Assembly: GCA_030141605.1 (NCBI GenBank)
Contig: JAQGDQ010000041.1
Span: 682,001 to 746,000, forward strand
DNA: 64,000 nucleotides
Direction: 5' to 3'
From: Tubiluchus corallicola
Taxonomy: Eukaryota > Animalia > Priapulida
Numbering within the stretch: the stretch's first letter is position 1; each line of letters starts with the position of its first letter. The position numbers and the translations under genes were made by a program. This document shows positions 11,388 to 45,578 of this stretch, piece by piece. Under the pieces are notes generated by a model. It was not told the origin of the DNA. It was given only the letters and a program-made list of their open reading frames with translations, and made no database searches.

Positions 11388-14300
11388 TCAAGGAGCAGGA
11401 GGCACAGCTTCTTCGTCATCTACTGGTACAGGAACATCTAAATTGTCGATTCTGTACTGCGTCATGGCCTCTTCCTCTGAAAAGGAAACACGGGATGAGT
11501 CATTCTTTGATTTGTTATAAATACAAACTTATGAGAAGAGTTACAGGCTATTTACAGAAAATTTTCTGGTGGTGAAGAAGTGAAAAATACGAAATATTAT
11601 TTAAACACACCATTTTAATTTCAAGATTATTTATCAATTAACCCTAGTGAAAGAATGAACCATTAATTGACCAAAAAGAAGAAAATGCCAAAAATCTAGG
11701 AGTAAAGGCGCCATTCAGACTAATGAGTTCTCTGCTTGTACTTGAATCAGCCAGGGATTCTGGGACTCTTTGAATGACAAGCCGAACATCCTTGACCACT
11801 AAATTTAACAGCCTGCTGACAACAGAGAGAGCGAGAACAAGTGAACAATAAGAGGTTTGTACTCCCCTTTCACATTGCATAGTTTGTTACTTTTAAAGTA
11901 ATTAATAGTTTGGTCTGATAATATCCCTTACAGACCCAAACATTGTTGAAAAGGCATTTCATAACTTAGCCTTTATAGAAAGTTTATATTTTTATTTATT
12001 AAAGCCCTATTTGACAGCTAGAATAATTGTAAAGTACTCGTTTTAATACGTGTAGGATTTTTTTTATCAGCCAATGTCTATTGAATAACTGTGTAAATGT
12101 TATCAGGTTATAATTTCACCATAAAATTACGTTCATTTCACAGTGGAATGTTACATTTACCACATGTTAGCTTTATATTACATAAATGTAATTAGATCTA
12201 GTCACTATAAAATGTAGGGAAAAATTAAGTGCAGTTTACTCACCAGTGTTATAATAAGAATAAACTCGAGCTGGACTATCTTTTAAGTTATCTACAATAA
12301 ATACTCTATTTGCATGCACTCTTGCGCAGGCGTCTCCATCATTAGGAATCTGCAAATTAAGTAAATAGTTAAATAGTAAACAGTAAAAACTTAGTGAAAA
12401 GGCACTGCCATATTACTGACTATCTATGACAAAACTTTATATTTCAGTCATGCTATTTACTAAAATCATCAGTAAAGCCTTGTACTCAGTAACTACAGTA
12501 ACTAGCTGGAAAAATGCTGGTATTAGCTTCATGAAGTGTTCCTATGTTTTCCTTTTTCCTTCCAATTTTCTGACTCGTTTACCCAAGTTTCATTCTGGAA
12601 ATCTGTCAAACATACCTGATTATAATAAATATTGACTGCACTGCCTTCGTCAGCAGACTCGACTCTTTGTAAATCTCTTAACCGCGTCAAATCGTTGAGC
12701 TGATCTTCATCAACTTTAAAGCCAGACGGCAACTGAATTTCTGCCACAGACATACCACTTGGACCATCATTCAGATATCTATGAAAAAGATTCAGTTACG
12801 TGAAAACGGTTGTAAGTAGAACAACTAAACTTTAAAAAACAATAAGGAATAAAACTTTAATGTAATCAGCTCTCTATAAAGAACAAAACAATAACTAACC
12901 TATAGTATCTTGAAAGAGTACAATAAATAAAAAATGTTCACACAATAATTTAACAATAACAGTCCTTACCTGGAACAAATTTCTACAACTATAATATTTT
13001 CATCTGGACTCCACCCTTTTGATGATATATTATACGCTGGTGGTAAATCATCTACAATTTCATTGTATTGCCATGACACCTGCACTAAACTGGTACCAGT
13101 TCCAGAAGCTGTGAAAGAAACTGTTTGCTCGGGACTGCCAACCTAAAGTGAGTGCACAATTGTTAATCCCATGTGTAGCATTCATCTATTAAATCATCAC
13201 TGAATAGAAGTTTTTACACAAAAACTATAGGCAAAAATGTTAGATGATTTCAATTTACTTACCACCCACTCTTGTAGTAAGTCAGCATTTTCTGCATTGA
13301 CAACAAATTTATTATGAATAGGCCCGGCAGTAATATCTATCTCGATGTCTGTGTCTGGTGACTGTGTTTTTTCTCCAAACTCAGACAGAGCTTGTAAACC
13401 AATTATTGTATCCTAGAGAAAATTCAAAAAATCAAATTAGCAGAATTTGTAACTATAAGACTGCATAGACTGCTGTTTTATATTAACACAGGGCACCATA
13501 ATGCATTAATTAAAACAACATACTACTGTTTAACTTACTACAAAATACACCCATAAAAGAGTGTCCATAGAAGGTACAAACTACATTAAAACATCAGGTT
13601 AATTTTGGCTATCTGTATCTTAAAATATACTATCCGCATTGCATATTGAGAAATGTGTGTTAGCTTTCCAGTACACATCTTCTAGTAGACTAAGTAGCCC
13701 ATTCTATTACATAATACATATGCATACCTGTGTTGAAGAAAATCCACCCAAAGAATTCCTCTGGCTAACTAACCATTTCATAACTGGAATAGCGTCCACT
13801 AGATTATCATTGGCTAAGTACGTGAGGAGACCATAAGCAGTCATCTCAATATCCACAGACTTGTGATTGTGGTATAAGTAATAACTAGATGGCTTTTCCT
13901 CTTCTTGTGGGTTCATCCAGTACTTCTTATCATCTGTGTGAAATAAAGTTTAGCGCTAGTATACAAACACGGTAACTTATTTTCGGCCAAGTTGTTTGTG
14001 TTTATTCTTGAGAACTGTTTAAAGCAAAAGCTAATACTTGCCTATCTATGCCCATTTTAATGTCTAGATAGAGAGCATTAATAAAAAGGACTGATGCCCT
14101 CACACAAAGCCACTGTGATTAAAAATTTGTTTTGAGTTTTTGACCTTGTGAACTTGGGCTTCAACCTTTTAAACCAAAAAGCAATTGGTCTTCAGGTCTT
14201 GCTCAGACCTATCCCTGTCAAGTTTGGTTATTATAATTTCACCAGTTTTGATTTCATTATAACAAAGTTGTACAGATAGACACATAGACTCAACTAATAA

Positions 14301-17300
14301 TTAATCGCCTTATTCATGACCAATTAATTTAATAATCCTCTTATCTGCAAATCAGAGTGAAAACCAGAACTAGTCTACATAAAAGAAATTTATCTAGTAA
14401 ACTGCTTATTACGCTATGAGCTCTGGAACATACCGTCAGTTATGGCAAGGTCGCCAAATTTCCTTTGTGTAATAGTAGCCATTTCATGATCCATTAATGT
14501 AAATGCATAATTCACAAGCGCTAAATCATATGGTGTTTCCAATGTGTCCACCTTTGAAGCTAAATAGTCAGCAGCCCTTCTGATTGCGTCTTTAAGACCA
14601 GAAACGTCTATCTTGGCAATACCCTATACAATTGAATTTAAATTGTGATTTGATAGTGAAAAGGAAATCTTTCATACTTGTTGTATATAAGGTACATTCA
14701 ATTACAAGATAAACTAATGTGCAACTTCATTAAAATAACATTTGCAGATGCAGTTAATTATACGATTAAAAAGTTACCTCATCTTGCATGTTTTTATCAA
14801 CTTCTAACAATGATATAAGAGTGTATGCAGAAAGAGCAATTCCTTCGCTAGCTTGCCCCTATAACAAAAATGGTATCAACATTATACAAAAACCGAAAAA
14901 TGACATATGTAAAAGCAGAAGTTACTCCATACTAAGAACCACTGCACTTTCTTTCAGAATTGTATATTCTGTCAACAGAGTTTGAAGTTTTTTGATATGG
15001 AAGCCTGGTGCCAAATAGCTTGCTGGCAGCACATATTCACTCAGAGAGCAAACTATATTTACGTATATTACCTGCATTTCTTTGTGTATCACACGACCTC
15101 CCACTTCCTTAAATGCTCCATCTGCTTGCTGATGTCTAACCAGCCATGATACTGTTCTGGTCATAACTTTAGGATCAATGAAGAGATACTTGTCAGCTTG
15201 AGAGAACGATTTAGCAACAAATGCTGTCAACCTAAGAAAATAAAAATGGTTCTGGAACACCCACTTTCAGTGTAACACTACTCTTATTTGTTAAAAAGCA
15301 TGTGTTAACTACAGTAAGGCTAACTATTAAAAAATGCTATTCGATGAGCACACGTACATAGCACCAATTTTAACATCAGCGGAAATAGGAGAAATCAGCA
15401 ATTCAAACTAATTCTGATGACTGTTCTGTAGAACAGAAATAGGAGATCATGAGAATTTCAAATATTATCTGGTCAAATAATAAACTTCATTGTCAGCATT
15501 ATAACCTGTTATGTAATTTTAACTCATTTCTATTTTCGAATTGTCATTTTGCAGTTCAAAGAAATGCAAGGCATGTTATTGCTAAATCTTTTAGTAACAT
15601 TGGTACTCAACTATCTCTATAATGCAAACAACCTATAATATTATGAACCTTATTATACATCTGGTGTTTATCTGCAAAATGTCCAAACCTGTGGTACATT
15701 TAACATAATGGTAAGCCTTCTTGTAATAATCAGACTTTCCTGGGCTTTCCTCACATAGAGTGAATTTTGCACATTATTCTTAGCTTTAAACAAGATATAA
15801 AGTTTCACGAAACAATGTAAAGAATCATCAAGCCTTTGTTTTTGTTTGCACTTACCATACGCTTCCATAATCATCACTATTACCAAATGCACTAAATGAT
15901 CCATCTTCTCTTTGGTATTTAAGCTCCCGTTGATACCCTTTAAAAACGCAATATTATTTGTAAATGAATGCAACTAATTCTCTTAGCGAGTTATAGCATT
16001 AAGTAAATCGAATAATAAACAAAAACAAAAATTTTGAACAAGCTAAGTGATAACTCAAAACAATGTGTGCTACTCTTAGCCATTATAAGAAATAATGTTA
16101 AAACCTACGTGTGCTAAAAACTGGACAAATCTTAATAGCTTACCTATATCCATAAATTGTTTGGTTTTAGTTTGAATATCAGGAGTGTACTCATCAACAG
16201 CTACGAGGTAATTGGACACGAAAATATTGGGAGCAAACAAGACCATATTCTGTTCACCACATCCTGTCGGCATACGAATCAACCTGTCCAAATTCTTTAT
16301 TGAAGGTCCCATCAAATCTCCTATAACGGATACTTCCAATCGCTCAGAACCTTCAATGATGTCAACAAACCATGGTATTGTAGTCCTAACTTTGACATTA
16401 TCTTCCTGTGTGAGATCTACAAAGTGAGCTTTATTGAAATAGCGAGTGACTCCCTCAGGCTGAAATGAAAAAGCTGATTCTTTATTCTGATCAAGATTAA
16501 CTGATGTGAACTGCGTTGTCTACGTATTAACACTAACTATACCAACAAATCCGAATAAAAATCAAAATAAGAACTAGATTGTACCTTCACTCGAAGATTC
16601 TTTCTAACAGCGTCAGCCGCTGTTTCAGTTTGTCCGCTAATTTTCAGTGATATTTCTCCAATAACTAGAGGTTTGATTCCAAATAAAACAGCAGTTGGTT
16701 CTCCGGCTGGTGCCTACATAAATATTATCACACATTAATAGCCATTTGACACATTTATAGTACACATATCAATTTTAACTTCAATGAGATACTAGACATA
16801 CCAAATAATGTTAAGAACGTTACATAAATACCTTTTATAACGTGTACAGTACCTTGATTGTTTTGCTTCTGCTGTCGAACTTGGCAGAGCTGGGCACACC
16901 AACGTGTTCAAACGTTTCCCCACCACCGCCTAGTGTCAGGAAAACGTTTGTGTCATGATTTAGGTAGTTAAAGACCAGAACTCTGATAAAGACGTCCTCA
17001 CCACGAATAACAGAGTAAGGAAGGTCTAGTTGAACGAAAAATGGTCTTGATACTGTAATCTAAAATATATAAAAATGATATTTTAACCGAATTAAATCGC
17101 AACCAGTTTTTTGTTTGTTCTAAACCGAATCAGAATCAAATACCTCAATTTACATAAGGATAATTTCGTTTTCCTCGTGTACTAATTGCTAATTGGGCAG
17201 CCGGGTAGGCTCTAGAACTTAAAATATCAATTTGGTACCCAAAATTCTTTAAAATATAAGGTACTTCATTAGTCTTTTTTCTCGCAACTGGTTTATTCTT

Positions 17301-20300
17301 GAAATTACTGTCTATGATATATATATATATATATAGTGTTACGAAGGCGAAATGCCCTTTATTATCTTCCCCCTATACACGCCCCCCCCCCCTAGTATAT
17401 GGACGCTATAGCCAGTCTAACATTCGCCGGTTTCGTACACATGGGAGCAGTTGCGTGAAGAGACGCAAAGAGCTTCCTGATCTGCTATCGTCTCAAAGAA
17501 GGGGAACAACGGTGCTACGTTAGTTGGTGCAGTCCTTACGAGCCTGCGGACCTACTCCAGCCATCTGGTTGAGGAACACCCACCTTGCAAGGGAGACGCA
17601 CGTACACGAACCCCAGGAGTCTCCAGACCGCTTTCTGAATCTGGCCGGGACAGAGCCAGCTCTCCGAGCCTCAACTACAGTCATTTCTTAATTCTTTTTG
17701 TTTAAAAAAATTTGACACAAGCCTTTTTCGTAAGCGTTATGCTCTTAAAATGGCAAAAACGTTTTAGGCATAACAGACATTTTATACTCCCGTAAAACTT
17801 GTAAATCCTGCGTGCTTCATTCTGGTTCGAGGCCGAACCATTTTCTGTAGAGGACGGCAGTGTTACGAAAGCGAAATGCCCTTTATTTTCGACCCTCCCC
17901 CTCTACATTGTGATGGTTTCATTCATTACGAAGCCATTGCATATCAGCGTTTCATAACAGCTATAAAGTAGCCGGTATGGAATGGCCTCGTCGGTTCAAT
18001 GATACACACACATGTATTTACATCCATATAGTGGATACACATAAAGCATACATATAGGCAGTAATTTCAAGAATAAACCAGTTGCGAGAAAAAAGACCAT
18101 AAACTCTGTAATGAGAGTAAAGTGCCTTACGTTTTAAAGGATTTTGGGTATATATATATGATGTGTATATGCGAATGTTAAAACTAATTTTTGGGTTATT
18201 CACGAAGTAACTCTATAATGTCATCAACACTATGATGTTGTTGTCATCTTCGGTCTTCTTGTTGTTCGTGCAATGACGTCGCAATAGAGTTACTCTGTAT
18301 TTTAATTTTTTGCAAAAAAACTGATCCTTGCCAACACTACATGGTGTTCTGAATAACGTATCCAGGCAGTTGGACAGTAAAATCATCAATAAGCGAATAA
18401 TCCGATGCCTCGTATTCTTGACTAGTTTTACATGTTTAGCCATTAATTATTTTTAAGATAAAACTATATACAAATAAATGGCGAATTTATTTTGAACTCA
18501 GTTATTGCAATTAGTAATAAACGCACCTTAGCTGTTTCTTCTCCAATTCCCAAGCCATACGTATCGCTTATAGCAAATGCACTAGCAATCCATGACGTAA
18601 TTGTATCCGGAACGTTTGTGCTGATTTCTGTAGAGCCGTCAGAGCTAAGAAGTCATAAAAATAACTATTATTGTTGAAAGTAGCACCACTAGTAATTTGT
18701 TAACAATTGTCGTATTTTGTAAAATCACGAAAAATTAAAAAAGCTTCTTCTTAAATTTTGACGTGTCTATCAAGATTTAATTAAATTCATGTTAAAAGCA
18801 AAAACTTTAGTATGTGCTTTTTTCGAAAACACGATAAACATAAACATGAATTGGCATTTGACGTACGTAACCAGACACAAATTCGTCATGCTAAATTATA
18901 ATTAGAGCATTCAAAAGTTATAATTTGTATGTATCACAATGCAATAATTTTTCCAGTAGTTGAAACAGACAATGTGATGTGTTAGTAAGGAAGCCAAAAC
19001 GATATCTACTATTAGCAATTAAATAGAGATAGTTTAGAAACTGTGCGTTGTTAGTGTGCTAACCAAGCCGAAGCTAGATTAATAGAACACAGATGAACTT
19101 AACAGCTTAACTAAAGCACCGCAAATTTTAATTAGTTTTAGGTTTCGTTAAGTATGTAAGAGAGAGAGAGCCACCCAAGACTATACTAAATAACCGCATA
19201 CACGGGTGCATGAAGAAGGTAGAAACAGCCAATTGTTCATTTTTGTCAGTACTACACTGGTGTATTAATAGTCTTGTTTTAAGAAATAGTTCCTGCAAGT
19301 AAGATTGTATGTAATGACTCTGCCTGAATTCCACCTTTAGCGAACATTATCATAATACGTGTACTGAAAACCGCTTGTTCCATATTGAATAGAACTACAC
19401 ACATCTACGGAGATTACAAAATCACCAAAATTGATGTTAACTCGTCAATAACTACCCAGCATCTGTTTCAGTCCAGAGCCACGTTTCTGGAAAATTGCTT
19501 CGCGTCTGTTTTGGTTTCAGCAACTGCTTTGGTTTACTTTCAGAAACAAAAACATCAATTTGACCAAGTGCATCACTACCAAAAGCACCAAGAGAAATAT
19601 CCGATAGTGGCGCAAAAGCGAATTCCGGTTGAAAGTCAAAGTCAAATTCAAAGTCAAATTCTGGTCCAATTTCTTCAGGAATACCTGGAAACGAAGATAT
19701 CGCGATAATTCAATCTCACTTACCGAGCACCTTCCCATCCCAAGTTTTTAATTCTCTCCTGTGTTTGAAAGTGTTTACTTTCTTATAATATAATTACCCA
19801 GATTTGTTTCAGTCCAAATATACGTTTCTGGAAAATCATGGCGAGTCTGTTTAGGTTTCAGGAAATGTTCTGGTTTATTTTTGGATTTTTTACGTAGGCC
19901 TATGCTGTCAGAGAAAGCAAACGTACAGGCAAAAGGCTGAGGCGCAGCGGCAAAACTTGCAGCTACAACAGTAAATTCCGGTTCGAACTCCTCAACCTCA
20001 AGTATTGAGTATAAAATATCTGGTTCGGTGAACGCTCTTCGGTGAGCGGTGAACAAGTAAAAGAACGCTCTTGGAATCAATTAGTCTTGCACTGCATGGT
20101 CTGCACCGGTCTCATTTTACCCCACTTTCTGATATACCTCTATTCCCGAGAGACTGACGGGTGCATTTTTTTTAGATGATTCGTAAATTTAATGCATGGC
20201 GAGAATTTCACCAAGGCGGCTAAGATTTTGGGAGAGCGGTTTCGAGTTTGCTTTGCTGTCACTTCTGCAGCGCATCCTTAAACTCATTTAGTCCACAAGC

Positions 20301-23300
20301 AGCCTGCAAGAAAAACGTGCAATTCACAGTGACCCGGGGTCCGTGTCTCCGTTTACAGTTCCCGTTTACATCTAGGTAATATAATCGAGGATTCTGCCCA
20401 AAATTATAAAGAGTAAATTTACATCTCGGAATGTCCGAAAACAAATACATTTTGTTTGAATCATTCAGTCTCACTTATAGGGCCATTTTAATATGCTAGT
20501 TTTACAACCCATGGATGCGTTTTGATTCTGATAGATATACTGCTTACCCAGCTTTTGTATCAATCCAAAGCCAACTTTTGGGAAAGTTGCTTCGATTTTG
20601 TCTTGGTTTCACTAACTGGTTTGAATCACTTTTAGTGAATCTTTAGACTGCGCTATATGAGCAAAAGCCAGAACGCGAGGCCGTGGCGCTTTCCTAAAGG
20701 TGGCTGGAAGTAAAAAAGACCTGCTGCAGTATTTCAAGGTGAACCTAACCCGCATTTCTTCTTATTTCTCTTTGAATTTTCTGATGAAAATGGAAGCGTG
20801 ACACTGGATATTTCGTGGGAACAAAATTTCCTGAACTAGAAGCAATGATCTAAATTACTTATCCAAAATCCATATTTTGCATAAAATTAATAACAATTAC
20901 CTTTGTACTACCAAACGTGGCCTTTGCTTTGGCTTCCCTAAATGCTTTATCAGTTTATGATTTCAAAAACCAAGCATGGCCACGCGTGAAATCTGGTACC
21001 ATTTGTAGGATTGCAAGACATTTACTATGGATTTAAATGTAAATGCCACATGCATACATTTGAAGCAGGGTTTGCTCATCTCAAAAGTTTGTAAGAGTAA
21101 TTCTAGTCAACTCATATAGCTCGACGAACACGGTCTTTATTCAAATATCATTGATATATCGATCTATTTCAGACTTTTCCGGCACGTTTTTGGGCCAATC
21201 TCATGGATTCAAAATGAAGGTGGTAGGAGGGAACGAAGTGCAAACGAGTCTAAATTAAATAAACAGAGCTCTCCAATCCAGTTCCAATTCTTTAAAGAAA
21301 ACTTCGCAGGCAAAATATTATTAAGCTTTTGTAAAAAAGTTTTGTGAAATGTGTTCTCGCCTGGAGGCCGTCTTTACAAAAAAATCTGACCAGTTGTTGA
21401 CTTCAGCAAATCAGCAGGTAATAGAACATAAATCTCATAATAATACAATTGTATTCATGTTTATCATTCAATACATGCACATGGAACAATATTTGAGAGG
21501 TGGAGCATGTTTTTATCAGAGACTTTAGCGCAAGGCTTAACTTCACTTTTCATTAAAAGAACACTCTCTACTTCAACGAAGATTTCACCAAATCTGTACG
21601 AAGCATGACGTAAAATCTGTTTTAAACTTGTGTACGCCACGTGAAATCTAAAACTTTACAGAGTAATTGGTGCAGGCTCATGCAGACACGATTCCTTTAT
21701 GGAGGATTCTGAAGAACAATGTATTTACGCTTCTTTGGGTATGTGAAAAAATGTTAAAGAGGAAGAAAAGGTAATTTTATAGTATATCCCAGAAAACTTT
21801 CTATACAAAGTTATGTTACTCAGCATTACTTTCACCTGCTTGAAAGACGTATGGTTACTGGAAGAAAATTCTTAGTTATTCAAAGTAAAACGTCCTGACT
21901 CATCTTCCCAGTTCGCACCACTGACTCGCTAAAACGCATATTATTAGCATCACTGAGAAAATAAAGTAGGCCTAATTTAAACTCTTGCGTGGTTAGTTAA
22001 GTGTTCACTAGGAATACTTTGATTATTTTTTCGAAGTTTACTCAATGTTAACTAAACTTCTTTCAAACGATTTACGTTAAAATGCCCGACGATCGTCCTA
22101 AGAGTTTAAAATTTCAAGTTTTATGTAGTGTTGCTACTAATACAAGCTGTGGGCGTATTACGGCAGTACGTAAGTGATACAAAATTTCAAGACAAATTTT
22201 TAGCTTCATGTAAGTAAACGGTTTTCTTGTTCTTTAGTTTATCTACCCCACACGTTCATGTACCAAAAGTCAAATTTCTGAAAAGCTTTTTGCAGAAATT
22301 TTGGTTTCAGTGAATTGTTTCGAGTTCGAGGTGGAGAGACAGAAAAAACCTCTGTCATGCTGACGCTCGAAACAGAATCAGCAGACTCTTCAAGACAACT
22401 ATTAATATATTATAAATCATAAGAGGGATCCATTGTCAATCACACAGAAACTAATCATATTTATGCGGCAGTAGGTAAAAAAAATCAATAAGCGTTTAGT
22501 GATATTTTAACTGATCATAGGAAACGGGGGCAAAACCATGACGATCGCGATATTACGAATGTAGGAACTACACAAGCTTAAGTAATTTTGCGCGCACTTT
22601 CTTAAACAATGACCGTTGGTCTTTAAACAAGGAAAACGTGTTGCAAAACAGAAAGATCGCGTAGCCGTTAGTAACTTTCGTTAGGTGGCTGTAATTTAAA
22701 TAAATTCCACTGGTTGCCAAATCACAATCGCATGGCTAAATAAAAATTGTGATGCGATCAACGTAGTTATAAATGTACTTAAATACTTGTAGGTATATGA
22801 AACATTCGCTGTTTTGACTAACCAAAATTTGTTTTTTAATCTACGAGTGCGGGTTATACTGGAATCGGATATTTTTTACTAGTTTCACTTGACGTTTTAT
22901 CGAAGTTGTTTCAAAGCTGGCCAATGCAGTGCTTGGTTATTTGGAAGATATTAGGAGAAATTGTTTAAATGAGCAAGAGGAAGTAGATTTTGATGAGTCT
23001 GAGCAGTGTGAAAAAGCAGCAACTAAATTGTAACCGAAACTAAAAAGGATCGTGTAACAGTGTCTGTTTCAAAATCACTGGTCAAATTACGTTTAAATAA
23101 GTGAAATAAATAGTGACGCAAATCTTTGCTACTACGTTTCTTCCACCTACCCCACAAAGGTATTGAGCCAGAGCAGCGTTTCAGGAAAATCTGTTCTAAT
23201 CTTCTTTGGGCGCTGTAAATCTTTGCCAGTTTGTGGCTGGTCAAATGGATTCTGCGCAGTAGTAGGGAAAAATGTTGTTGTAGTAGGAAATGGCCGACGG

Positions 23301-26300
23301 GTAGCAGTAAAAGTAGTGCGTCTATCTAGCGAAAAATAATCCCAGTCTCTGGTAGCTGCCTCTGCAAAACGTTATTGTTTTGTAAATGGACGTTTTTATT
23401 GGAATGCCTAACGATCTAGAGATATAAACGTGCTAAAAGTAAGCTGTTCAATGAATAACAAGCTGTGCAAACATAGCAGCTGCTAACAAGAAACTTGAAC
23501 GCGCCAAATCTCGGGCAGTAGACTGTAGTGCCATTTCTTCGCCGCTAGGTTTAAGATCTAGTTTCTTTGTACAACTTCTGTTATATTAGAAGTGACTGTA
23601 CTAATAATGACGTTTTTTGCAATATGTGCAAGGAACAAGCTGCACAATAATGCTCGGCATAATACTAAAATTTAAAGGCACAAATGCATGCAAGTAATTA
23701 ACATAAGTAGGTTAATCAGCATGATATGTAATGACAGTTCACAACAAAACACTCAGCTAAGTTAGTACCTAAATGCATCTGCAAAACACATTACTTAAGT
23801 ATAACTTGAAGTTCAGAAAGCCATTCGGTACATGCAAATCAACACACAACACTCTTCTCACCCAGACTCAGTGTCAATCCACAACCAGGATTCGGGGAAG
23901 TCCTTGCGCACTTTCTTTATGGGGACAACTTTCTTGTTGCTAGCACTCTCGGTTCTTGCGCCTTTAAAAGCACGAGCAACGGCTACACCAGCACCAGGCG
24001 CTGGCCTTTGAGCCATAAGCGGACGTTCAAAAATAGGCTGGATCGCGTGGTCAAAGTAAAAAATAGGAGGGTGTAGTTCTGAAACAGAATATGTTGGCAA
24101 CAACAATTTTTCAAGCTTTAAATTTAATGCTAAAATAGTAGTAACATCTATTCGTTGTCTCCTGGAGCACCAATCGCTTCCTCATAATTCAAAAGTTGGC
24201 TAATGGAAAGATAGAAAAATTAGCATGGTGTCAAAAATCAACTTCGTGTTCAGGCTGCGCATGAAATTTAATGAGCACTTCATCTTTTTGCTTCGGAAAA
24301 TTCTAGGTATTAATAAATTTAATAGAATTTGGTACTCGGAAAGCGGGTACCCAGCACTCAACAAGCAGGGCCTACACGATGTGTATGGTTGTGGGAGCCC
24401 CGGCACAAACTTATGGAGCCTTTGAGCCGAGGTAGGTATGACAGACAAAACCGTCCTGAAGCAATGTTGCCAAGGGCCATTCATCCATTTACTGACTAAG
24501 CTCACGTTTGTTTATCTTTGGTTGCTAAGTACCATCTAGTGAGCTAAAATTAAACTAAACAAAATACATTTTTATTAATCTGATTTAATAAATTAATTAT
24601 AACAGCTGAATTGTGTGATTACACTATTGTCTCTCATTAATTTAAAAGACATAAATTGAAAACATAATTTCATTCAATAATATAAAAATCGGTTTTGTCA
24701 AGGTAAAAACTTGATATTGTCAACGAATGTGTCGATGTTATGAAGACAAAGTTTGTAATGTCAAGGTAGAAAATTGATATTGTCAATATAAAGGTCCGAA
24801 AATTGGAAAGTGATTTTTTCATATCATCACCTAATACTCTTCGGCACAAAACTGCACTCTATCACTAGTATTGAAAATGCCAATTTAACGAGTTTAGCGC
24901 GTAGTGTCAAATGCATTTTGAAGTTTATATTTGTATGACTTGAGATATTTGTTGACGTTAATGTTAAAATGATAATTAGTGTTAACCATAGTTTTTGCGC
25001 TCTAACTTCACAATATTAAAGTCCACAAATTCTTTTTCCGCAAAATGCCTAAATGTTAGCTACGGGTCCTACAAATGGCAACTAAATGTAGCTGCGCATA
25101 AGTGCACCATGTTTCATTTAGGATTTGGCAATCTCATCTTCAGTATTTTCTTGATGGCACCCCTCCCCTTACCCATAGTAACAAATGTAATGACTTGGGT
25201 GTTACAGTATCGTCCGATTTGAAATTCTCGACACAGTGTAAAACCATAGTTTCTAAAGCACTTCGTATGGTAAATATGATTTTTAGGGTGTTTCTACACT
25301 AAAAACAAAACTGCACTGTTGACTGCTTATAAAGCTTATGTGCGTCCCTTGTTGGAGTACTGCTCGTCAGTGTGGTCCCCGTTAGTGCCGTCAGTTTAAT
25401 TATGTTTCTTATTTAGACAGACCTGTCAGAACTAGAATTGCAGCCAGTCGAATTAAGACGCATTGTCTGTGATCTTAAGATGGTATACAAAATTTGTCAT
25501 AAAATAGTGGGTTTAAGTTTTGATGATTTTTTCAAGAATGCTTCAAAAAACACTCACTAAAAGACTAGCTAATGTTAATTTACTGCCCTATTGCAACTTT
25601 ATCCGGAACATGTAACATTGTCATTGGCGTAATTGGCTCTCTCCGAATCGTATTATTGTATAAAACGTGTTGTATATGGTATATAATTCATATTTAGGTA
25701 CATTTATTAGGAGCTTTTTAATGAGAGATATTAAATTTTAGGGAATTGTTCTATTTTTGTGCATCTTTTTATGTCTTATAGGATCAGCGTAAGTGCGCAT
25801 GCGCCTACTTATTCTTTCTTTTATACAATTTTACTATATGTATAAATGTCAAAATAAATAAATAAATAATGTATCAGAGAGGCCAACAAACATAACACGC
25901 ATACACATAGATTACAGACTAAGTTACTTAAAGAGATTTAGTATTTTCAAAGATTTGGAAGGAATTTCCATGAACTATAGCCCGACTGAGAATTTTTGCC
26001 CGGGAAGACAGATTAGTGTGAAATATAAAACCAGTCAGGAAAAAACCTTTGTCGACAAAACGACGATAATTTTGATCACAAGAACTACCGCTAAACTATA
26101 AACATGATCTTACAAGACACAAAAGAAGACTGACGAGGGGCACGAAAACCCAAGAAGAGAAGGGATTTACTTTGAAGCATAAACCAAGTTAAACCTATGT
26201 GGTGCAAAGATTCGGAGGCGGCGACTAGCACTTCTAATTTACGTCTGTGTATAAAGCGAAATCCAATCATTTAGTCAAGAAAATGCTGCACTCTAAATAG

Positions 26301-29300
26301 AACAAACCTTATGTTTTCGATCAGGACTAGCAGGATATATCTCGCACGCTTTAGCTAAATTCGAACTCGAATCACTATAGAGCATGCCTAAAACCATGCG
26401 CATGCAGCATAGCTTTACTATTCTCTACATCTGAGGCTCTATGGAATATATGCAAACAAGATAAATACGTCCTCTCACCCAGCCGTAGTGTCAAGCCACA
26501 GCCAAGATTCTGGAAAGTTCTTACGCACTTTCTTTATAGAGGCAATTTGGGTAGTAGAACTAACAATGTCAGGTTTTTTGTCGACGGGAGGACCAACTGG
26601 ACCTCCAGCAGGACCTGGCCGTCCTAGGTCTTGAAATGCGATGCCCACTCTCCATCTAATGCCAGGTAGCGCATCGGGACTAGGAGGGCCAGGCAATTCT
26701 TTAAAGTAATAGGGAAGCGGAATGTCTGAAACAAAACATTACTGGATCTTTAGTTAATATTGCAGTAGTTGAGGAGTACGGCTTCCAACAATAATGCACA
26801 ATTGTTCGTTTAAAACTGTTTTAATCGATTTTGGTTTAGATATCGTGTTTTCATGCAATAATTGATGGGATTTATATACAGGTCTCATATACAGGTATAC
26901 TCATTGAAATTGAAAAGTGAACTAGTAAATCATCTTCAACATTTATACACGGGAAGTGATTCTATGATGATGATGATGACCCGTTTTAGCAAATTTATTT
27001 TAGCATCACTACCCTACTGTGCAGTTTTTATTTACTACGGGTAAACCTATCACTTATTTCATTCCCATACAAGGTTATACGCCCAGAGATACCTGACCTA
27101 AGTTGGTTTTTATTTTTCGTTTTCCTCCTTTAGTCCTCTTCACTGATGTTGATGGCTGAAAAAAAGATTACACTGATGGCTGAAACTCAGTGTAACTGAG
27201 TGAAAGTTTAAGTTTTTCATTGCGTAAGAAGCATTTATCATTTGGTAAACCCCCAATTTCTGTGCACCATACGCGCATGAGAATCGGATTTTCTCAGCTA
27301 AACTATGACCTTTTCTCTAAAGGCTGTAAAGATAATAAGTGTCATCCAGTATTGTCGATTTGAGTCTGTTGAGCACTTCTTCTTGCACTGCCCATTGTAT
27401 CAGCAAACTAGGGTTGTTATGTTTGATAAACTGAACGAAATACTGCTACCTGAAAACCTTAATATGGCTGTCTTGTTATGAACTGTTGAAGTTGTTATAG
27501 TTTGGAAAAGATGAATTTAATTATGTTGTTAACTGTAAAATATTCTAATGTATACATAACTTTATATTTCGTACTAAGCGCTTTCAGTAGCTTTTTTCTG
27601 ATATGAAATGCGTCAGTCTTAAATATTCGTAAATTAATATTTCTTAACTGTCATTTGGTACTAATAGCTAATGTAATCTTGTAGTGAAACTTGTTAAGCT
27701 TGTGTTGATAGAGTCAATGCTTACTGTAAATGTTTTTCTTAATAGTGTATATATTTTGTTGTGGTGAGGATCCTGAATCATGTTTTTTTAAACTGTCTGA
27801 TTCAATCCTATAATAAATTATGTTTAAGCTAAATTGTAACGAGTTAAAATTTTTTAGCGAGTTAAAATTTGTATATATATAATCTCAGGAACAGGAAGCT
27901 TCTGTCAACACAGAATGGAATCCAGCATTTTCCCTTGGCTGTTGCAAAGTTTCAACGGAGACAAGATTCTGTAAAATGTTTCGTACTTTCAACAATCGCT
28001 AAGGGAAGTTTTCTTGTTAGCGCGAAGATATTACTGCTGGCCCGGGATTCATCGCAGCAGTGAGGTTAGGCTTATGATACATTGATACATGATAGAAAGC
28101 GTCCAGCGTCTGGCTGCTCGCTTCCAGCGTTCAGCGTTCACTGGGTAATATTAATAATGTGCAGTAATTGAGAGCGTCTTAACAACATCCCTCACTGTTT
28201 GGTATGGCGCTACCACGCAGGGAGATCGCAATGCTCTTAATCTAGTTGTTAAATTATAGGAATTGAACAGCTATGAGTGAACAGCAATCTATGGCATACG
28301 AGGAAGAATGAGAACATACAAGTATTCCAACTTTCATCATCAAATATGCTATTATTATTAATAATATTATTATTATTATTATAAAGTGCCGAGAAAACGT
28401 AAAAAGCGTTGGAAGTTTACAAAGCATAATTATTTAAAACGCTCCGAACGTATTTCTGCAGGTATACATGTTTTTAAAGCATAATTGTTTATTGTAACTC
28501 ATCAGTAAAAAGTTTTTATTTAACTTGGTTTTAATAGACTTTACACTTTAACTTTAACTAATAGGTTTCAATATTTGCATGATGTTACTAGCCACTATGG
28601 TTTTTGTTTGCTGATTTGTTTGCATGCTTATTTTCCATTTGTTTGTTTATGAATTTATGATGAAGTATAATCTCAGGGCGCAAAGTTTGTCGCTTATCAG
28701 TGAATCACTTGAATTATATTATTTGTTAAAAAGTGTGCTAGATAAGAATAAATATCCCAAGAATTTAAAGAATTCGAAATTTGAAGGAAAAAGCGAAAAT
28801 CCATGGCCCTACAATTTGTGGTTTTTAGGTGTCTATTTTGACCCCATAGTTTTGACTGACAAATTAGCGCCTGCTTGTCTCGTTATCCAGTGACAATTAA
28901 TCTGTGTTAGAAAAGCAACCACCACCACCACCGGTCATGTTAGTTTAAATTTCTAAATAGCAATAATTGCGGTGCTTATTCTGGCTAGCAGAAGGCTGAA
29001 CCTGCAAAGTGAGGTGCGAGCTTCTCACCTTGCTGTTGTATCGACCCACAGCCAAGATTCTGGGAAGTTTTTTCGTATTTTCTTTATTGGGGCAAGTTTT
29101 CCTGGTACTGAAGATGTTTCTGTAGCCACTTTTGGAACCTGTGAACTGGGACCTGAACCTGCGAACGAGAAGGCTAACTGCGGCAAGGCACCCCCATCAG
29201 CAGCACCGAAAAATAATTCTCTCCGAAATATAGGCCATATAGGACGTTCAGGGATCTCTGAAATAGGTTTAGAAAATGAATAATTTAATAAAAATTTATT

Positions 29301-32300
29301 CTAACCAAACCCGATTAAATAAAACACCGGATCCAATGTACATATTTGGTTTCGGGAGAAATAATGGTTAGTACCACAATTGCAGTAACCTTTGATGCAA
29401 TAATAATTTGCTGAACTGCAATTATCCGAACCGCCACCAAAAACAATTTTAACTTTATAGGAATATATATATATATATACGTGTGAACTGTATAAAAATA
29501 ATGAAAATATCGTTTTTTGCTAGATTATATACGAGCTGGCGCTTTTTAGTGGGGAAGCATTTGCCGAATAAACGCACTTTTCTCACTCAAACGGCAAATG
29601 GCAACAGAAGCTACAATGAGACCGTGTCTCTGTCTCCTTTAAAATGTAGTCTACATCCAAAGTTTTAAAAAAGGCTATACCTACCTCTGTATAGGTAAGT
29701 ATCGGTCACAACAGCCAGTTTCGCCTCCCTGAATGTCTCGTAAGCGTCAGAACTGCTGTACCAGTGCCATGGATACAGGATAAAGCTGCGTTTCTTTCTC
29801 TCAGCACGTATGGGGGGACCTCCAGAACGGAGAAAAGGCACAGGCAGACTATCATCGTCGTCAAAGCCATATCCTCTTACGTCATCCAAAACCTGAATCG
29901 AAAAAGAAAATTATTATTAGACGACGGGTTTTTACCAGTAATTACTATATTAGATCTAATCATTATTAGAACGTGTAGCAAATTACAAAAGATGCATTTC
30001 TGTAGACATACTTGATAACTTTGACATAAGATAACTGTTAATAGAGTTTTCAGCCTTTGTCTCACTTGGCCGACAAAGGATTACAACAGACATCCGTGTT
30101 CCCTCTCCTTTTCTCTGATTTACACAGACATTTTATATCAAAGTTATCAGGGACAGAAGTGCAAAGTTTTCTCTAAGTTTTTTCCAAAGCTGCTTTTACG
30201 TGGAGTTTTCGACAGGGATTGCCTTTTCTTCAATTATATAAACTTTAACCAAATTAAGAAGAATATCAATATACATATATAAAGCTTAACTACTTTGCCA
30301 TGGTAGATTATAGACATAGCATTTTTACTACACGTCGTTGCTGCTTGTCAACTTTATTCCGTATATTACATGTATAACCCTTTACAACTAGCAATTCTGA
30401 AGACTCGTTTCGGCTAATTTTTCTAAAACGTCTTTTGAATTTCGAAAAATGATCACAAACTCACCGAATCTGCTGTGATATCATTTCCACCACGTAGTAA
30501 CAAAACTGACTGATCAACTGCCAGTATGCCAATAAAGGACCAAGGTGCTGTGGTGATGTGCAATTTTACTTTGTCTCCTGGCTCAGCCGATTCTTTGTTA
30601 AACCGCAATGCAACCTGCGAATAAGAGACAGCCGTTGATTTGCAATCTCGACAGTGGATTGGGCAAAGGCGGAGAATGTAAAATCCACTTAGTGAATATA
30701 TTACATTTTCCAGCAATGGCATGGCTCTTAATAATTCTAATGCCTATTTTTCGAAATAAGTGCCATCATAGATTACTGAAGGTAGGGCGGTAGGGACATA
30801 GCGCCAAATTATATTTTCTGTAATACAATCCATATAAAGAGAAAATATAACAATTACCTGAAGGGGAAGAAAAGGTAATTTTACCGTATGCCCCAAAGAA
30901 CTTTCCATGCAAACTTATATTACTTAGCATGATGCTCACCTCTGTTTGAAAAACCCATGTAATTGGAAAAGAATATTCTTAATTCTAAAACAAAACCACA
31001 TAATTGTTCATACTTACAATATAAAGTAATTTAAACTTTTGCTTAGTTTGGGAAGAATGTGCTACATATGCGCTGATTATTTTTTAAAACTTTGCGCACT
31101 GTTATCTAAACTTGTTCAAACGACTTACAGTTAAAATGGCTGTGCTTAACAGTCCCCGCAGGTATCTAAATTTACAAGTTTTTCAACGTTATTGCTAATG
31201 CATGCTCTGTATGCAATAAGACCGCATGTAAGTGATACAAAATTTTAAGACGAATTTGCTCAGCTTTATTTATGAAGAGCTTTTTCTTTTGCTTTAACTA
31301 TTACACGGACTAACTCATCAACGTGAATATTAATTTATTACCTATAGTCCTATATCTTCATTTCTGATGGTTGACAGATGGCAGCACTTGTGCCTCTGCC
31401 AAGGAAAATGACGATAAGAGAAGTGGTAAAGAATTAAAAATGGTATCAAGTGTGCTAATGCTAAGTGTGATTTTTCTAATTGCTATTAATAACAATATTC
31501 TTTTCAACTAACCTGGTTGTCAAATCCACCCTGAACTTCAAAGTTAGTTGCATCAGTTATCACCTCTCCACTTCTGTGTATGTAATAAACAAGCATTCTT
31601 GAGCGAGGAGCCATGGCATTGTTTATCTCAATATTGAACTCTTGCTCATTATTTCCCATTGGTACGTAGCCATTGTCTTCAATGTTTCCACGTGATATAA
31701 CCTAACAAAAGGGTTTGTACTTGAAAATGGGCAAGAAGTTCCTCAGATTTAGACAGAAAATTTCAGAGACTGGTAATCGTAATAAAAGAAGAAACAAGAC
31801 AGAATAAAAAGAAATTCGTTCGCTCTCCGTTTTGTCTTCATTTATTCATATATTTATTCATTTACTCATTCATTTCATTATTCTGTCATTCATTTGGCTG
31901 GCCAGTAAGTCAGCCAGTCAGTCGGTTATGCTTTTATTCATTTGTTTTTGTTTATTCACTCACTCGGTCATTTGTTGCTGATTTGTCAATCACTCATTTC
32001 TCACTCATGAGGAATTATTCACTCATTCACTAACGTTTTCACCTTTCTCACCCCATAATTCACAGTGCACCTGCTTATTTTCTGGGCGAGCCCACTAATT
32101 AATCCTTGCTTACCAATTAATTACTTCATTTATTTATTCCGTTATTTGTATCATTAGTTGATTGGTTTTAGACCTGCTATTTAGATTCTTTTATGGAAAA
32201 CTTTCGTTTTAGCTATATAGTTTCCACAAAAATTATCAGAAGGTATGAAATGCGCAAAAAAGTTGAAAACCTACCTGATAATATACTCCGTCGATCACAT

Positions 32301-35300
32301 CTGTTGATTCTACAAGAAAAGTGGCTTGGTCTCCAGCCTGTTGAAAAGAACATTTCTAGTTACATTTCTTATGTTTTGGACAAGATAAAAAATTCACACC
32401 GCAAAGTCAAGTATTTTTATCCATCTTGATAACACAAATGAAATCTCTACTTACCACTAGATCTGCACTCCTTAATCCAACTTGAACAAAAGCTTTCACA
32501 CCAGCTTTATATTCCGACGCACTCTTCCCGGCAGTACTGTCGCCAGTTGATTGAGTATATTTGGCCTAAAAATTACAAAGCAGTGTTTAGTTTTTTCTAA
32601 ATTTAAAATTTTATTAAAATAGACGTAGCAAAAAGTGTAAAAGTATACAATTCTTTGTATAATTAACATGTTCTTCAGATGAAGGAAAAGCAAATTGCAA
32701 CGTAACAATTAATTTTTTTGCGACTGTCACTTTCTCATTTACAGTACTATGCAGAACATGGCTAAAAATTGTGCAGAGAATTAAACCCAGATTCTTTAAA
32801 ATTTCTTACGGCAAAGTTAAGACTTCCATAAATCAACGAAGGAACTTCTACTTGAACCACAACGCGTCCATCAGCTGGTATTGTGTAAGTTTCAATCTTA
32901 CGTTTTGGAAATCTGTGTCTGCTATCCCAACTATAACAAATGAAAAAACAACATCGTTACTGAAGTGGTAAATATTATTTATTATTGCTACCTTTTAAAT
33001 TTTTTAAATAAGTTAACTGTCGTGCGAAAATTTTATATAAGTGCAATCAGTAAAATTCATCATTTGAATAAAGGGTTTTTCACAAAAGCTTGAACAACTG
33101 ATTAAGTGCGCCAACTTTTTTATTTATTTCAACAACTGAAATTGCAAGCTCAAACCCTGTTTCCTGAAGACTGCAAAGTAACAACAACAGCGATACAGCT
33201 ATAGTGTATACAATTTCTATTACAAGCAAAATAAGCTTTTTTAAGGGACGAAAAAAGTTGCAACAAAGAAAGTAAGTTTAATATAAACAGTAAGCCACAG
33301 GCCCATAGCAGTAACTTTTAGACATAATTGGTGTTTATCTTTAATTCTAATTCTACCTTGGCCAATCTGGATTAGCATCTGGATTTTTTTCATCCCATCT
33401 ATAAGTGAGTTCTACTTCTTGAGCATCTGAATCCAACAGCGGCGACCCATCTTGACGTTCAAACGTTATCTAGAAAACAAATTCCTTTATTCTCTAGGAA
33501 ATTAAGAATAATTATAGTTTTCGCAAGCTGTCTTGATAATAAGCATAAAGCGTATCGTAGTAATAAGTACTGAAGTAGAGAAATTGGTTTCGAAAGTTAT
33601 GCATACCACAGCGAAATAAGGTAGCCCGGGCTTGTAGTAATCAGGTCCTTGAAACGTCATTTTCACTGGATGCTGGTACTTGCTCACGTAAGCTTCACCT
33701 GTCAGCTCAACACCAGTTGCCTCCTCGGTCACAATGGCTTCTATTTTTACTCTTCTACCATCTCCAATAATTGACAGGACATTAAAAGTAAAAGTTGCTT
33801 CTCCGTCAATCTGAAAATTCGTAACTGGTTACAACAAGCGTTAGTGCGAATACAAAAATCTATGTTTCAAATAAAATGAGGTATACTATGCTCAACATTT
33901 GGTCACTTTGGTTTTCTTTATTGTTGACAGGTGTACGTATTAACATTTTTACCTGGATAGTTTTTGCGACTATTTTTCTCTCACCATCTAAAAGAGAAAC
34001 CACGGCTTTACCTTTTACTGGACCACCGTGGGTATATCTGAAAAAAGTTAAAAACTGAGTGCTGTTTACACTGAAATCCTATCAATTCATTTTCACTGTT
34101 AAAATTTCCATGTTTGATCGCAAGGAATTACTTTTCACTAAATAATTTTCATGTTTAAAGAATGCAGATGCAGATCTTACTTCATCATTATTAAATTACA
34201 AGCATTTGAAGCAAATAGAATTTTGTTGTTATCGCATAAGGTAAACTAGCCGCTTACCTTGCTCTGACAACACCAGAAAGTTCAAAACTGTCTCCGACTA
34301 AGAACGAGGGAAGATCAACTTTAACTTCAAATCGTGGTAGAACTGAAAAAAGAATAAATTATACTTATTGATTTTTCACCCAATTCATTTTGTAGCTGAT
34401 TAAACTAACAACGTTTCAGCCAAATTGATCGGTTTACTTACGGTAAGATCTAAAACACCAAAGTCATTATTTTGATGGATTCTACTCATTATTCAAAGTT
34501 ATTGTTAATTTTTGGGATTCGGTTATTTGACTTCGGTGATTAAACATCACCGCAAAACGAGCAAAACACAAAAGTTATTTATGCTGGGAGTTCGTAAAAT
34601 TTTGGAAGGCAAAAAACTTACCATATTCTTCGACTTCAAAGTTCTTTGAGGCTTCCTCTCCCTGCATTTGTGAAACAAAAAAAGAGTTTATTTTATACTA
34701 CTCATGTTAGTAAATAGACAATTTTGTTGTCAGCAGGTTAGACTTTATATATGACTTCCATTCTAAGTGTCTGACTGATGAAAGAGCTATTTTAAGAAAA
34801 ACCAGTAAACTACTTACATCAGAGTTAACAGTGATTTTCCACGTGCCGAAAACAGGCTGATCACTTAACATGAAATCCAATGTGGCAACACCTGAACAAA
34901 ACAGGAAAATTTAAAGAACGATAATTTCATGTTTTTTTTTACTGTTACGGTACGGTTTATCATTAAAGTTTGACTCATTCATTACTGCTAGGATGGGCGT
35001 ACGGGCCTATTTTTCGAAGGAGGGCTGAGCCGTTTTCGCTCGAAAAATACAGCACCAACCCGAAAAAAACGCATGCCAACTTCGAGTCGGGAATTGGTCA
35101 ATTGAACCCCATGATCAAAAAATACCCGAATTTCGGGCACTTCATTTGGCGTCATGGAGATATTTCGAGATTTCCTTTTATGAAAAATGTTTTTCATCAT
35201 TTGGCCGGCGCCCGAAAAATTTGGTGATTGCCCGAATCCGGGAGGGGAATGCAGCCCCCAGCCCATACGCATATGACTGCTAGCCTGAGCGAAATGGCAA

Positions 35301-44550: not shown

Positions 44551-45578
44551 ATGACATGGAACTTCACAAGGAACTCAAGCAATACGTATACGACGACAGA
44601 ATTAGACACATTTTGTCATGCGAAATTTTTTTATGTAATTATCTCTTCTCTCCTATTTTTGTTTGGCGTCATTGGAAATATCATCAACATTCGTGTGCTG
44701 TGGCACTCCAACAGACTCCGAGAACTCAGCTACAACTTCCTTCGATGGTTGGCCATTGCTGACTTCTTGGCTCTTAACTTTTGTTTCCATTTCATTCTGG
44801 CCATTAGTAGAGTGTTGCCGGGGACCATCCATCTGGCTAGGTACATTGCACATGCACTTTTTGGACTCTTCGGCTGGTTCACATTTTCCAGTAATTTTTT
44901 AATTGTGTCTTTGACGCTTGATCGCTATCTCGCCGTGTCTTATCCTATGCACGCGAAGACCTTTCGGACTTGGAAGGGCGTTACTGTTGGCATCTGGACG
45001 TGCTTTGTGTGGGCGTTCGTCATCGAACTGCCCGATTTTATCAACAGGAGAATTGAGGAAGCAACGGAACACCAAGCAAACACCACAGTCTACACATGGA
45101 CCTGGAACGATGAAGTTACCCGGACGTCCGTTTACTCGGCATACCCTTGGATAAGGTCCATTTTCGGACAAATTCTACCGGAAGTGTGCGTCATAATAAC
45201 AAATCCGTTGATCATACAAGCTCATCGCCAAGTACTGGCGAGAAGACGTCTTATGAAACTCACGGCAATCCAACGAAAAGCCGCCCTTGAAGAAAAGCGT
45301 CTCTTTACGCTCCTCATAACTGTGTCAGCGGTTTTCATTTTGTGCACAATCCCTAATACAATACTGGGCATCATTACAAGAATGGGAGATGATAGCCTTC
45401 TTGTGGACGTAAGATTCAGCACTTTTCGTATCTGGCAACTATCATATTAATGGTAAATCATGCTGTGAATTTCTATGCATACAGCCTTGCCAGTTCGGTT
45501 TTCCGGCAAAGTTTGAAAGAAGTTTTATCTCGAGATTTGCGGTGTAGCAGAAGACACGTAGAACCGCTACAGGCATGA
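44551..45578 (+). CDS. Intronless class A GPCR, FMRFamide/myosuppressin/sex-peptide-receptor-like; 1-nt frameshift before TM7 (pseudogene or assembly error)
   Basis: The 299-aa ORF has N-terminal N-glycosylation sites, TM1 GVIGNIINI, TM2 LAIADFL, TM3 LTLDRYLAV and TM6 FILCTIP. TM7/helix 8 (ILMVNHAVNFYAYSLASSVFRQSL) continues in the shifted frame from about 45435 to TGA at 45576-45578. Confidence 0.88.

Follow-up and report, generated by a model that had tools for sequence, protein, structure and literature searches.

Tandem alternative exons that encode the variable region of a TEP are known from several animals, including the Drosophila Tep2 and mollusc genes that a preliminary description of the present locus had rightly named as parallels, with 12 copies in snail BgTEP2, six in scallop CfTEP and five in Drosophila Tep2 (PMC7016707). 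In Biomphalaria glabrata, BgTEP2 spreads its 12 alternative exons over 30 kb and BgCD109 has eight predicted ones; these are genes of 35–43 exons with a catalytic His, and their central variable-region exons vary in length and composition and are conserved at the C-terminal end (PMC7016707). The Chlamys farreri gene CfTEP has six mutually exclusive exons yielding seven isoforms (Zhang et al. 2009, as given in PMC7016707), with exon use that depends on sex and pathogen (PMC7016707); Drosophila Tep2 and its mosquito homologue have five exons (PMC7016707, PMC6071210) and show splicing shifts (PMC11765297); and homologous arrays vary by tissue (PMC7016707). The array architecture itself is therefore not new, having already been published with 5, 6, 8 and 12 exons. 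Alternative bait exons have reportedly also been found in a tick A2M, to judge from a reference title. As to function, plug retraction is the trigger of activation in the A2M family (PMC9156758), CD109 is a bait-triggered protease trap (PMC12927315) and, in engineered A2M, the protease that is inhibited depends on the sequence of the bait (PMC8267569). For CD109 and A2ML1, the available parts of the published descriptions present the bait as one sequence and do not mention an exon array.

The window (the whole 64,000-nt stretch of Tubiluchus corallicola DNA that was analysed) carries on its minus strand, as do all features given below, a gene of this kind that we modelled with about 32 exons, compared with 11–15 in the insect TEP genes covered by PMC7016707. 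The coding part of exon 1 (40289–40365) supplies a start codon and a predicted signal peptide with a hydrophobic N-terminus, and its phase-2 donor matches exon 2 in the model, at this point built from sequence only. Constitutive exons 2–16 (30465–38308) encode MG1 to the N-terminal half of MG6, with Pfam matches to MG3 and A2M_BRD, and exon 17 (29685–29892), the 17th of the model, encodes the linker region, with RKKR at aa 653 and a phase-1 donor at 29685. Beyond the array, exon 19 (18527–18644) starts at 18644 with a phase-2 acceptor and encodes the C-terminal half of MG6 (matching Pfam A2M from model position 12), and exons 20–31 (12244–17059) encode MG7, CUB, the thioester domain and MG8, including the GCGEQ thioester at aa 984 (exon 16459–16144) and, about 110 aa past it, a His at the catalytic position in VIHKEMQG. 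The last coding exon is uncertain: our best guess (11390–11476), outside the stretch with RNA contigs, would encode an acidic, Pro-rich tail with neither a C-terminal Cys stretch nor a GPI-like tail, and a profile search for a Cys-stretch exon gave no convincing match.

Of the 30 frames tested, 10 had Pfam matches, which follow one another as expected (MG scaffold, A2M_BRD, A2M, TED, receptor-binding). The thioester exon (E 1e-19) and the terminal part of exon A both had human CD109 (8s3o, 9fx2) and A2ML1 (7q1y) as their best PDB matches, and the protein has its bait, plug and thioester layout in common with these. A quick tree (28 rows, without C3 or Mcr rows) placed the protein on the CD109/TEP side of a branch and not with A2M (SH-aLRT 97). 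Domain matches, structural matches and tree thus agree with the earlier assignment of the variable segment to the bait/variable region of an A2M/TEP-type protein, and support its reading, from sequence comparison, as the bait/variable region together with the beginning of MG6's C-terminal half in a putative iTEP/CD109-type protein. The catalytic His also occurs in fish CD109 and oyster TEP, whereas the vertebrate A2ML1 rows have Asn. Complement C3 or Mcr identity, judged by a C345C domain, a Cys-rich anaphylatoxin, or an LDLa domain with a mutated thioester, was rejected, as the model has only five Cys, with none in the variable region, and an intact thioester. Unlike CD109, which carries a GPI anchor and a furin site ahead of MG8, the present model shows RKKR upstream of the bait and lacks a GPI tail. 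Compared with BgTEP2 and BgCD109, the locus packs five intact exons into 10 kb, beside decayed copies, its model lacks the C-terminal Cys stretch or GPI tail (the last exon being uncertain), one series inclusion is seen in it, and its protein fell outside the mollusc/brachiopod clade in the quick tree, where the scallop-type protein (Pecten P0128) was likewise not a close relative. In the databases searched, the closest TEP relative reached a best identity of 39% over the model, and a 50%-cluster search returned no close TEP relative. Other sequences used to place the animal were no more specific: an RP9 exon matched mites, myriapods, amphioxus and corals equally well, at 77–88%, a GPCR search yielded nothing at E 1e-10 from 1,597 candidates, and the Atlas offered just generic clusters of the rhodopsin family.

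Between exons 17 and 19 lie five intact paralogous exons, A (29029–29257, 229 nt), B (26479–26725, 247 nt), C (23862–24078, 217 nt), D (23151–23361, 211 nt) and H (19456–19684, 229 nt), which together span about 10 kb. Their coordinates and properties were as first described: all five have AG/GT ends, are 3n+1 nt long and contain no stop when read from phase 1 to phase 2. Each copy opens with a divergent stretch of 50–60 aa and closes with the conserved end R-x-x-F-P-E-(S/T)-(W/L)-L-W, with 9–17 identities between copies in the last 20 aa; the motif R..FP[EK][ST].[LI]W matched seven times in the window and never in 100 codon-block shuffles, and the array holds seven copies with this exon-end motif. 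The N-terminal parts, said earlier to be unrelated, are so in nine of the ten pairs; the exception is A and C, which resemble each other weakly (shuffle fraction 0.01 of 300). Bait chemistry differs among exons, with H acidic and aromatic with few basic residues (12 acidic, 2 basic), D rich in Thr and Phe (13 Ser/Thr) and B rich in Pro and Gly (13 Pro). The R-x-x-F-P plug motif, present in all five exons, and a YVLP channel motif at aa 247 would be equivalent to Arg730–Pro734 and Tyr214–Pro217 of A2ML1, and every copy may keep the former because plug retraction triggers activation in the A2M family. Exon A has the highest splice scores of the array (acceptor 6.2, donor 8.5); those of B, C and H are at the lower end of what the constitutive exons show, with the H donor (2.1) below all 30 constitutive donors.

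The earlier proposal that one exon restores the frame and that none or two shift it was borne out in every combination. Single inclusion of any of the five gives a stop-free frame of 1,483–1,495 aa with signal peptide, GCGEQ and catalytic-position His, whereas skipping all bait exons leads to a stop at codon 716 and all 26 multiple inclusions (every one of the 10 pairs, 10 triples and 5 quadruples, as well as the single quintuple) run into a stop within exon 19 at the latest. With C and D together, the reading frame closes 13 codons into D; an in-frame C+D product was rejected for this allele, as the sole frame that opens D stops within the last 90 nt of C. Since only one exon keeps the frame, each productive mRNA is likely to carry one bait loop.

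Evidence on splicing came from one run of contigs, X2, which is RNA-like by the tool's guess and represents a diverged relative about 93% identical to this sequence. X2 joins exon 16 to exon 17, confirms seven joints between 14622 and 18527, and contains the 17-A-19 form (joint 18644/29029, depth 638.6, or about 639), the same contig reaching and covering exon 17. It also contains the last 90 nt of C spliced to D at the exact intron ends (23361/23862, depth 128) and D spliced to exon 19 (18644/23151), with C upstream in the only D-bearing contig. Among the X2 joints listed, none was 17-D, 17-C or C-19, and A was the only one of the five exons seen as a complete single inclusion; the zero depth over B and H and lack of cover on two decayed copies, E and G (see below), are not evidence of silence. 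The C-D-19 product is out of frame and, at a depth of 128 versus 639 for the A form, makes up no more than roughly one sixth of the array transcripts in X2, contig depth being a mean and no measure of a single junction. An artefact of shared exon ends was rejected as the source of the C-D joint (the ends of exon 17 and C are identical at 25 of 90 positions). The mutual exclusivity claimed earlier is thus supported in part, by the one-exon frame rule and by A, which is spliced singly, and weakened by C joined to D; the proposed check of junctions returned, beside 17-A-19, a mild form of the series inclusion that had been named as contrary to the claim. Nor is the count of at least five isoforms borne out, with A the only full single-exon product and D found only downstream of C in X2. 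The frame rule imposes exclusivity on the protein, but splicing itself is not strictly exclusive.

Strict exclusion might still be imposed by competing RNA structure, with a docking site and selectors, in which case the C-D contig would be a rare intermediate exaggerated by assembly-graph pruning. Docker–selector pairing, described for Dscam, Mhc and 14-3-3zeta, is the principal mechanism known where a cluster has more than two exons (PMC6071210); a mean contig depth cannot measure the junction; and of 10 duplexes between flanks and introns, 4 exceeded all eight shuffles in strength, although the coarser tiling of the shuffles favours the real sequence. However, the best duplexes, at −19 to −26 kcal/mol, are spread over different sites and indicate no single docking site, no inverted-repeat arm is shared among the 25 longest of 200 pairs, and the C-D joint lies at exact intron ends and does not stem from look-alike ends of exon 17 and C, so we hold strict exclusion of this kind to be unlikely. 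Two other controls were rejected: steric exclusion for A-B, B-C, C-D and D-E, where introns measure 500–2,447 nt (only the G-H intron, at 113 nt, is short), and U2/U12 incompatibility, all donors being GT and none having the U12 donor consensus, GTATCCTT.

Series inclusion could, conversely, be a regulated product, either a secreted N-terminal fragment of about 776 aa without the thioester domain or an off-switch acting through decay. The depth of up to one sixth of array transcripts and the early stop in D would fit such a role, but the form is known from one contig in one run, at a depth that is an upper bound, a fragment that lacks MG6's C-terminal half would probably not fold properly, and a stop 14 exons before the end makes a typical decay substrate; we consider a regulated function highly improbable.

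The array is larger than first described, in that it also includes E, G and two faint remnants. Decayed copy E (20548–20703, 156 nt, one base short of 3n+1; nhmmer E 1e-11) has usable splice sites and FPK in place of FPE. The doubtful copy G (19798–20019, 222 nt at the paralogous donor, again one base short of 3n+1) has an open frame but a poor acceptor, whose score of −2.1 is lower than that of any of the 30 constitutive ones; if the weak donor at 19779 were used instead, the exon would measure 241 nt and stay in frame. A faint remnant at 27948–27990, probably the 3′ end of an A/B/C-type exon (nhmmer E 0.069), was picked after the search and has a local score matched by 1.5% of 200 random windows, and a very weak possible remnant, F, at 20219–20263 (nhmmer E 0.97; repeat family D3) has a score equalled by 3.5–20% of random windows. 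A DNA-like run, X1, has a depth of about 1–3 in bins over E and G. Real decay is favoured over assembly error as the probable cause of the one-base losses in E and G, because none of the 31 constitutive exons carries a frameshift.

Decay of this kind raises the alternative that A is the sole working exon and that B, C, D and H are mostly dead duplicates, spliced as noise in a decaying array. The frameshifts in E and G and the presence of remnants would be expected from it, as would the restriction of productive junctions in X2 to A, with C and D appearing only together and out of frame, and the low splice scores of B, C and H, down to an H donor weaker than every constitutive one. Yet B, C, D and H, whose N-termini have diverged beyond recognition, have all kept open frames, 3n+1 lengths, the plug motif and AG/GT ends. 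In addition, the relative's indels preserve frame (+6 in A; a sum of −3 in D, leaving 208 nt), which points to selection on the reading frames of A and D, and homologous arrays are tissue-variable, so that one sample may miss forms (PMC7016707). We therefore regard wholesale death of the other four exons as very unlikely.

Our preferred reading, to which we assign a probability of roughly three in four, is that one CD109/insect-TEP-type gene holds five intact exon copies, uses one per productive mRNA and thereby likely presents a different protease-sensing bait each time. In its favour, the limits of the variable segment are near-identical in protein position to those in 11 annotated isoforms of Malaya genurostris and three of Drosophila novamexicana, the latter with Asn at the catalytic position where this protein has His. 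In insect Tep2 isoforms (P0127/P0266/P0268, Malaya), as here, the variable segment runs from just past the linker to a few residues past R-x-x-F-P-E-x-W. By analogy with A2ML1 and CD109, the divergent stretch would form the exposed bait, whose cleavage would pull the R-x-x-F-P plug from the MG2/MG3 channel and expose the GCGEQ thioester, which could then attach the protein to the protease or to a surface close by; the baits may accordingly differ in protease specificity. As the plug and the next MG6 strand share an exon with the bait, duplicates must keep both while the bait drifts freely. Splice-site strength probably biases a leaky choice towards A, and multi-exon products of the C+D type would be made, meet premature stops and probably be cleared by nonsense-mediated decay, with the array gaining copies by tandem duplication and losing them by decay (E, G and the remnants). 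The locus would add to the cases in which duplicated exons let a single thioester-protein gene vary its trigger loop, with five chemically distinct natural baits as a test set for the common assumption that alternative baits change protease specificity, and its decayed copies and C+D product bear on array turnover and on how exclusivity is enforced.

A bolder version holds that the spliceosome keeps no exclusivity at all, that exon choice is loose and series products sizeable, and that the 3n+1 rule and decay together enforce one bait, in a lineage outside molluscs and arthropods and in an array that is turning over. We judge this decidedly unlikely; if true, spliceosome-independent exclusivity would offer a tractable case for the birth and policing of multi-exon immune cassettes, and the same reading would hint that such arrays arose, or arose again, deeper than the protostome model groups.

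The array of alternative bait exons is a real feature of this gene. Its five intact members, A (29257-29029), B (26725-26479), C (24078-23862), D (23361-23151) and H (19684-19456), lie on the minus strand where the preliminary description had placed them, each flanked by AG and GT, with the claimed 3n+1 lengths (229, 247, 217, 211 and 229 nt, respectively) and an open phase 1 to 2 frame. The conserved exon end was likewise borne out, with 9-17 identities per pair across the last 20 amino acids of the five exons; a motif scan recovered seven copies of this end within the array, and the pattern R..FP[EK][ST].[LI]W occurred 7 times in the window versus 0 in total over 100 codon-block shuffles. 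The N-terminal parts, described as unrelated, were indistinguishable from shuffles in 9 of 10 pairs, but A and C were weakly similar.

The array is larger than the five exons first described, extending to copies E and G and two faint remnants, all on the minus strand. Copy E (20703-20548), which carries FPK, has usable splice sites and is 156 nt as assembled, one base short of 3n+1; copy G (20019-19798) has an open frame and a poor acceptor, and is assembled at 222 nt (also one base short) with the paralogous donor, or 241 nt and in frame at a weak donor (19779). The remnant near 27990-27948 (nhmmer E 0.069) scored against exon A at a level reached by 1.5% of 200 random windows, and that near 20263-20219 (nhmmer E 0.97) at a level reached by 3.5-20% of 200, both having been chosen post-search. 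Similarity between B (26447-26548) and C (23829-23931) runs ~30 nt past the donor into the intron, and a GTGAGA donor is common to A, B and C, with E, G and H forming a second subgroup; this pattern suggests two rounds of duplication. The array introns also hold a diverged duplication (21757-22236 and 30861-31296; 65% over 494 nt) and, at ~27200-28200, a high-copy repeat (depth >1,200 in X1, a DNA-like run), both probably mobile-element relics.

A gene model was built by profile and tblastn searches with homologues, followed by splice-site fitting. It places 17 exons, starting at 40365, ahead of a single alternative exon, and 14 after it, ending at 11390. With any one of A, B, C, D or H included, the model encodes an uninterrupted protein of 1,483-1,495 amino acids that carries a predicted signal peptide, the motif RKKR at 653, a variable segment at ~691-767 and GCGEQ at 984. 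The catalytic position is His, which fish CD109 and an oyster TEP also have, against Asn in the two A2ML1 rows compared. The claim that only a single exon preserves the frame held in both directions: skipping all alternative exons leads to a stop at codon 716, and each of the 26 possible sets of two to five exons meets a stop within exon 19 or earlier. The last exon, without an iTEP Cys stretch or GPI tail, is a guess. The gene has an unusual 3' end: the exon that fits best as the last (11390-11476, minus strand) encodes an acidic, Pro-rich tail without cysteines, and just upstream of it 11644-11926 (minus strand) contains open frames whose ends are Cys-containing or hydrophobic, possibly a terminal exon that is alternative or has decayed.

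The gene belongs to the A2M/TEP superfamily, as 10 of the 30 tested frames matched Pfam families (MG3, A2M_BRD, A2M, TED and receptor-binding domains) and the best PDB matches were human CD109, then A2M and A2ML1. In a quick tree of 28 proteins, without C3 or Mcr rows, the model fell on the iTEP/CD109 side (branch SH-aLRT 97) and outside the well-supported mollusc/brachiopod, arthropod and fish CD109 clades, with at most 39% identity to any tree protein; membership of the iTEP/CD109 branch is most likely. Two unnamed database proteins, P0121 (2,264 amino acids) and P0122 (1,894 amino acids), both contain two separate stretches similar to the thioester exon, so that they may be TEPs fused in tandem or gene models that were merged.

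No Pfam family was matched by any of six alternative exons tested; exon 19 aligns to the A2M model from position 12 onward, which places the opening residues of that model in the alternative exon. In native A2ML1 a disordered bait precedes a plug, Arg730-Pro734, which sits in a channel formed with the Tyr214-Pro217 stretch; once the bait is cut, withdrawal of this plug has been proposed to set off the conformational change (PMC9156758). In the protein modelled here, YVLP occurs at 247 and every alternative exon encodes R-x-x-F-P. Each alternative exon may thus be a complete trigger module, made up of a free bait, a constrained plug and the first strand of MG6; this would explain why the exons are half divergent and half conserved. 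Cleavage of its bait activates CD109, which is a monomeric trap (PMC12927315), and human A2M inhibits a different set of proteases when its bait is rewritten (PMC8267569). The predicted baits differ in make-up (12 acidic and 2 basic residues in H, 13 Ser/Thr in D and 13 Pro in B), which would be consistent with different protease sensitivities.

Exon use was assessed by aligning two runs to 14000-31000, of which X2, one sample from a diverged relative, was the only RNA-like set (its RNA status is a guess). X2 contigs were intron-free at ~93% identity (7 of 8 aligned records within 90-95%), and among the joints listed seven connected downstream exons, with CT..AC ends. In record 11 (depth 638.6), exon 16 is followed by exon 17, A and exon 19, with an exact A-19 joint; the 5' third of A was too diverged to align, and the ~235 letters from exon 17 to the exon 19 overlap equal 229+6, in frame. 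Record 10 (depth 128) joins the last 90 nt of C to the whole of D and then to exon 19, both joints at exact intron ends, with D at 208 nt (net -3). A look-alike artefact at the C-D joint was rejected, since the ends of exon 17 and of B match that of C at 25 and 61 of 90 letters, respectively. These two records wholly account for the binned X2 depths, with zero cover on B, E, G and H.

Two different exons, A (singly) and D, are therefore spliced to exon 19 in X2, and both have kept frame through indels in the diverged relative. Of the at least five isoforms proposed, single inclusion of A was seen; the other four do not appear among the X2 joints listed. Strict mutual exclusivity fails, as C and D occur in series before exon 19 in the only sample; in the window allele, C+D meets a stop 13 codons into D. 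Because depth is averaged over each contig and assembly can probably discard short low-depth branches (17-D, C-19), one sixth of array transcripts is an upper bound for C+D in series, and D or C may also be included singly.

Steric exclusion was rejected because the array introns (all GT-AG) are too long, G-H (113 nt) excepted. Duplex and inverted-repeat searches found no docking site, the best duplex sites not coinciding; 4 of 10 duplexes were stronger than every one of the 8 shuffles, which were tiled more coarsely than the real sequence. Exon A has both the strongest acceptor and the strongest donor in the array, and B, C and H score in the low tail of 30 constitutive sites. Decay is listed as one exclusivity mechanism in PMC6071210, where it is doubted for clusters of more than three exons, whose lengths can sum to a multiple of three; that objection fails here because any exon included after another is translated out of frame and reaches a stop. 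We prefer a reading in which exon choice is biased and leaky, with decay presumably acting as a backstop against series products.

Similar arrays are known: snail BgTEP2, where 12 mutually exclusive exons stand in tandem and keep their C-terminal residues, BgCD109 with eight predicted variants and, cited there, scallop CfTEP with six exons, Drosophila TEP2 with five and a shrimp A2M with six variants (PMC7016707); five exons in TepII (PMC6071210); shifts in Tep2 exon use (PMC11765297); and tick A2M bait variants, the topic of a paper cited by title in PMC2685406. In the mosquito Malaya genurostris (11 annotated isoforms) and D. novamexicana (3), the isoforms differ in the interval of the protein that also varies among the five here. 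The window array works like the Tep2 and BgTEP2 arrays and fits their structural definition, but departs from their never-together rule in the one RNA set, X2. To the picture of such arrays this gene adds decayed copies, a product with exons in series and a proposed role for the plug in the conserved exon end.

Elsewhere in the window, a single long frame at 44542-45450 (plus strand; 302 amino acids) encodes a rhodopsin-family GPCR (Pfam 7tm_1, E 6e-23), for which a word-based protein search found no relatives at E 1e-10. Downstream of the TEP gene, ~270-4850 (minus strand) holds exons of a coiled-coil and WD40 gene that we take to resemble SPAG16/PF20. An exon at 57531-57677 (minus strand) belongs to a homologue of retinitis pigmentosa 9 (RP9), with 77-88% identity to RP9 across many animals. 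A Lys/Ser/Arg/His-rich open frame of 75 amino acids at 53820-54047 (plus strand) is possibly an exon of a plus-strand nuclear protein gene, and 62900-63360 is a long, imperfect trinucleotide microsatellite.
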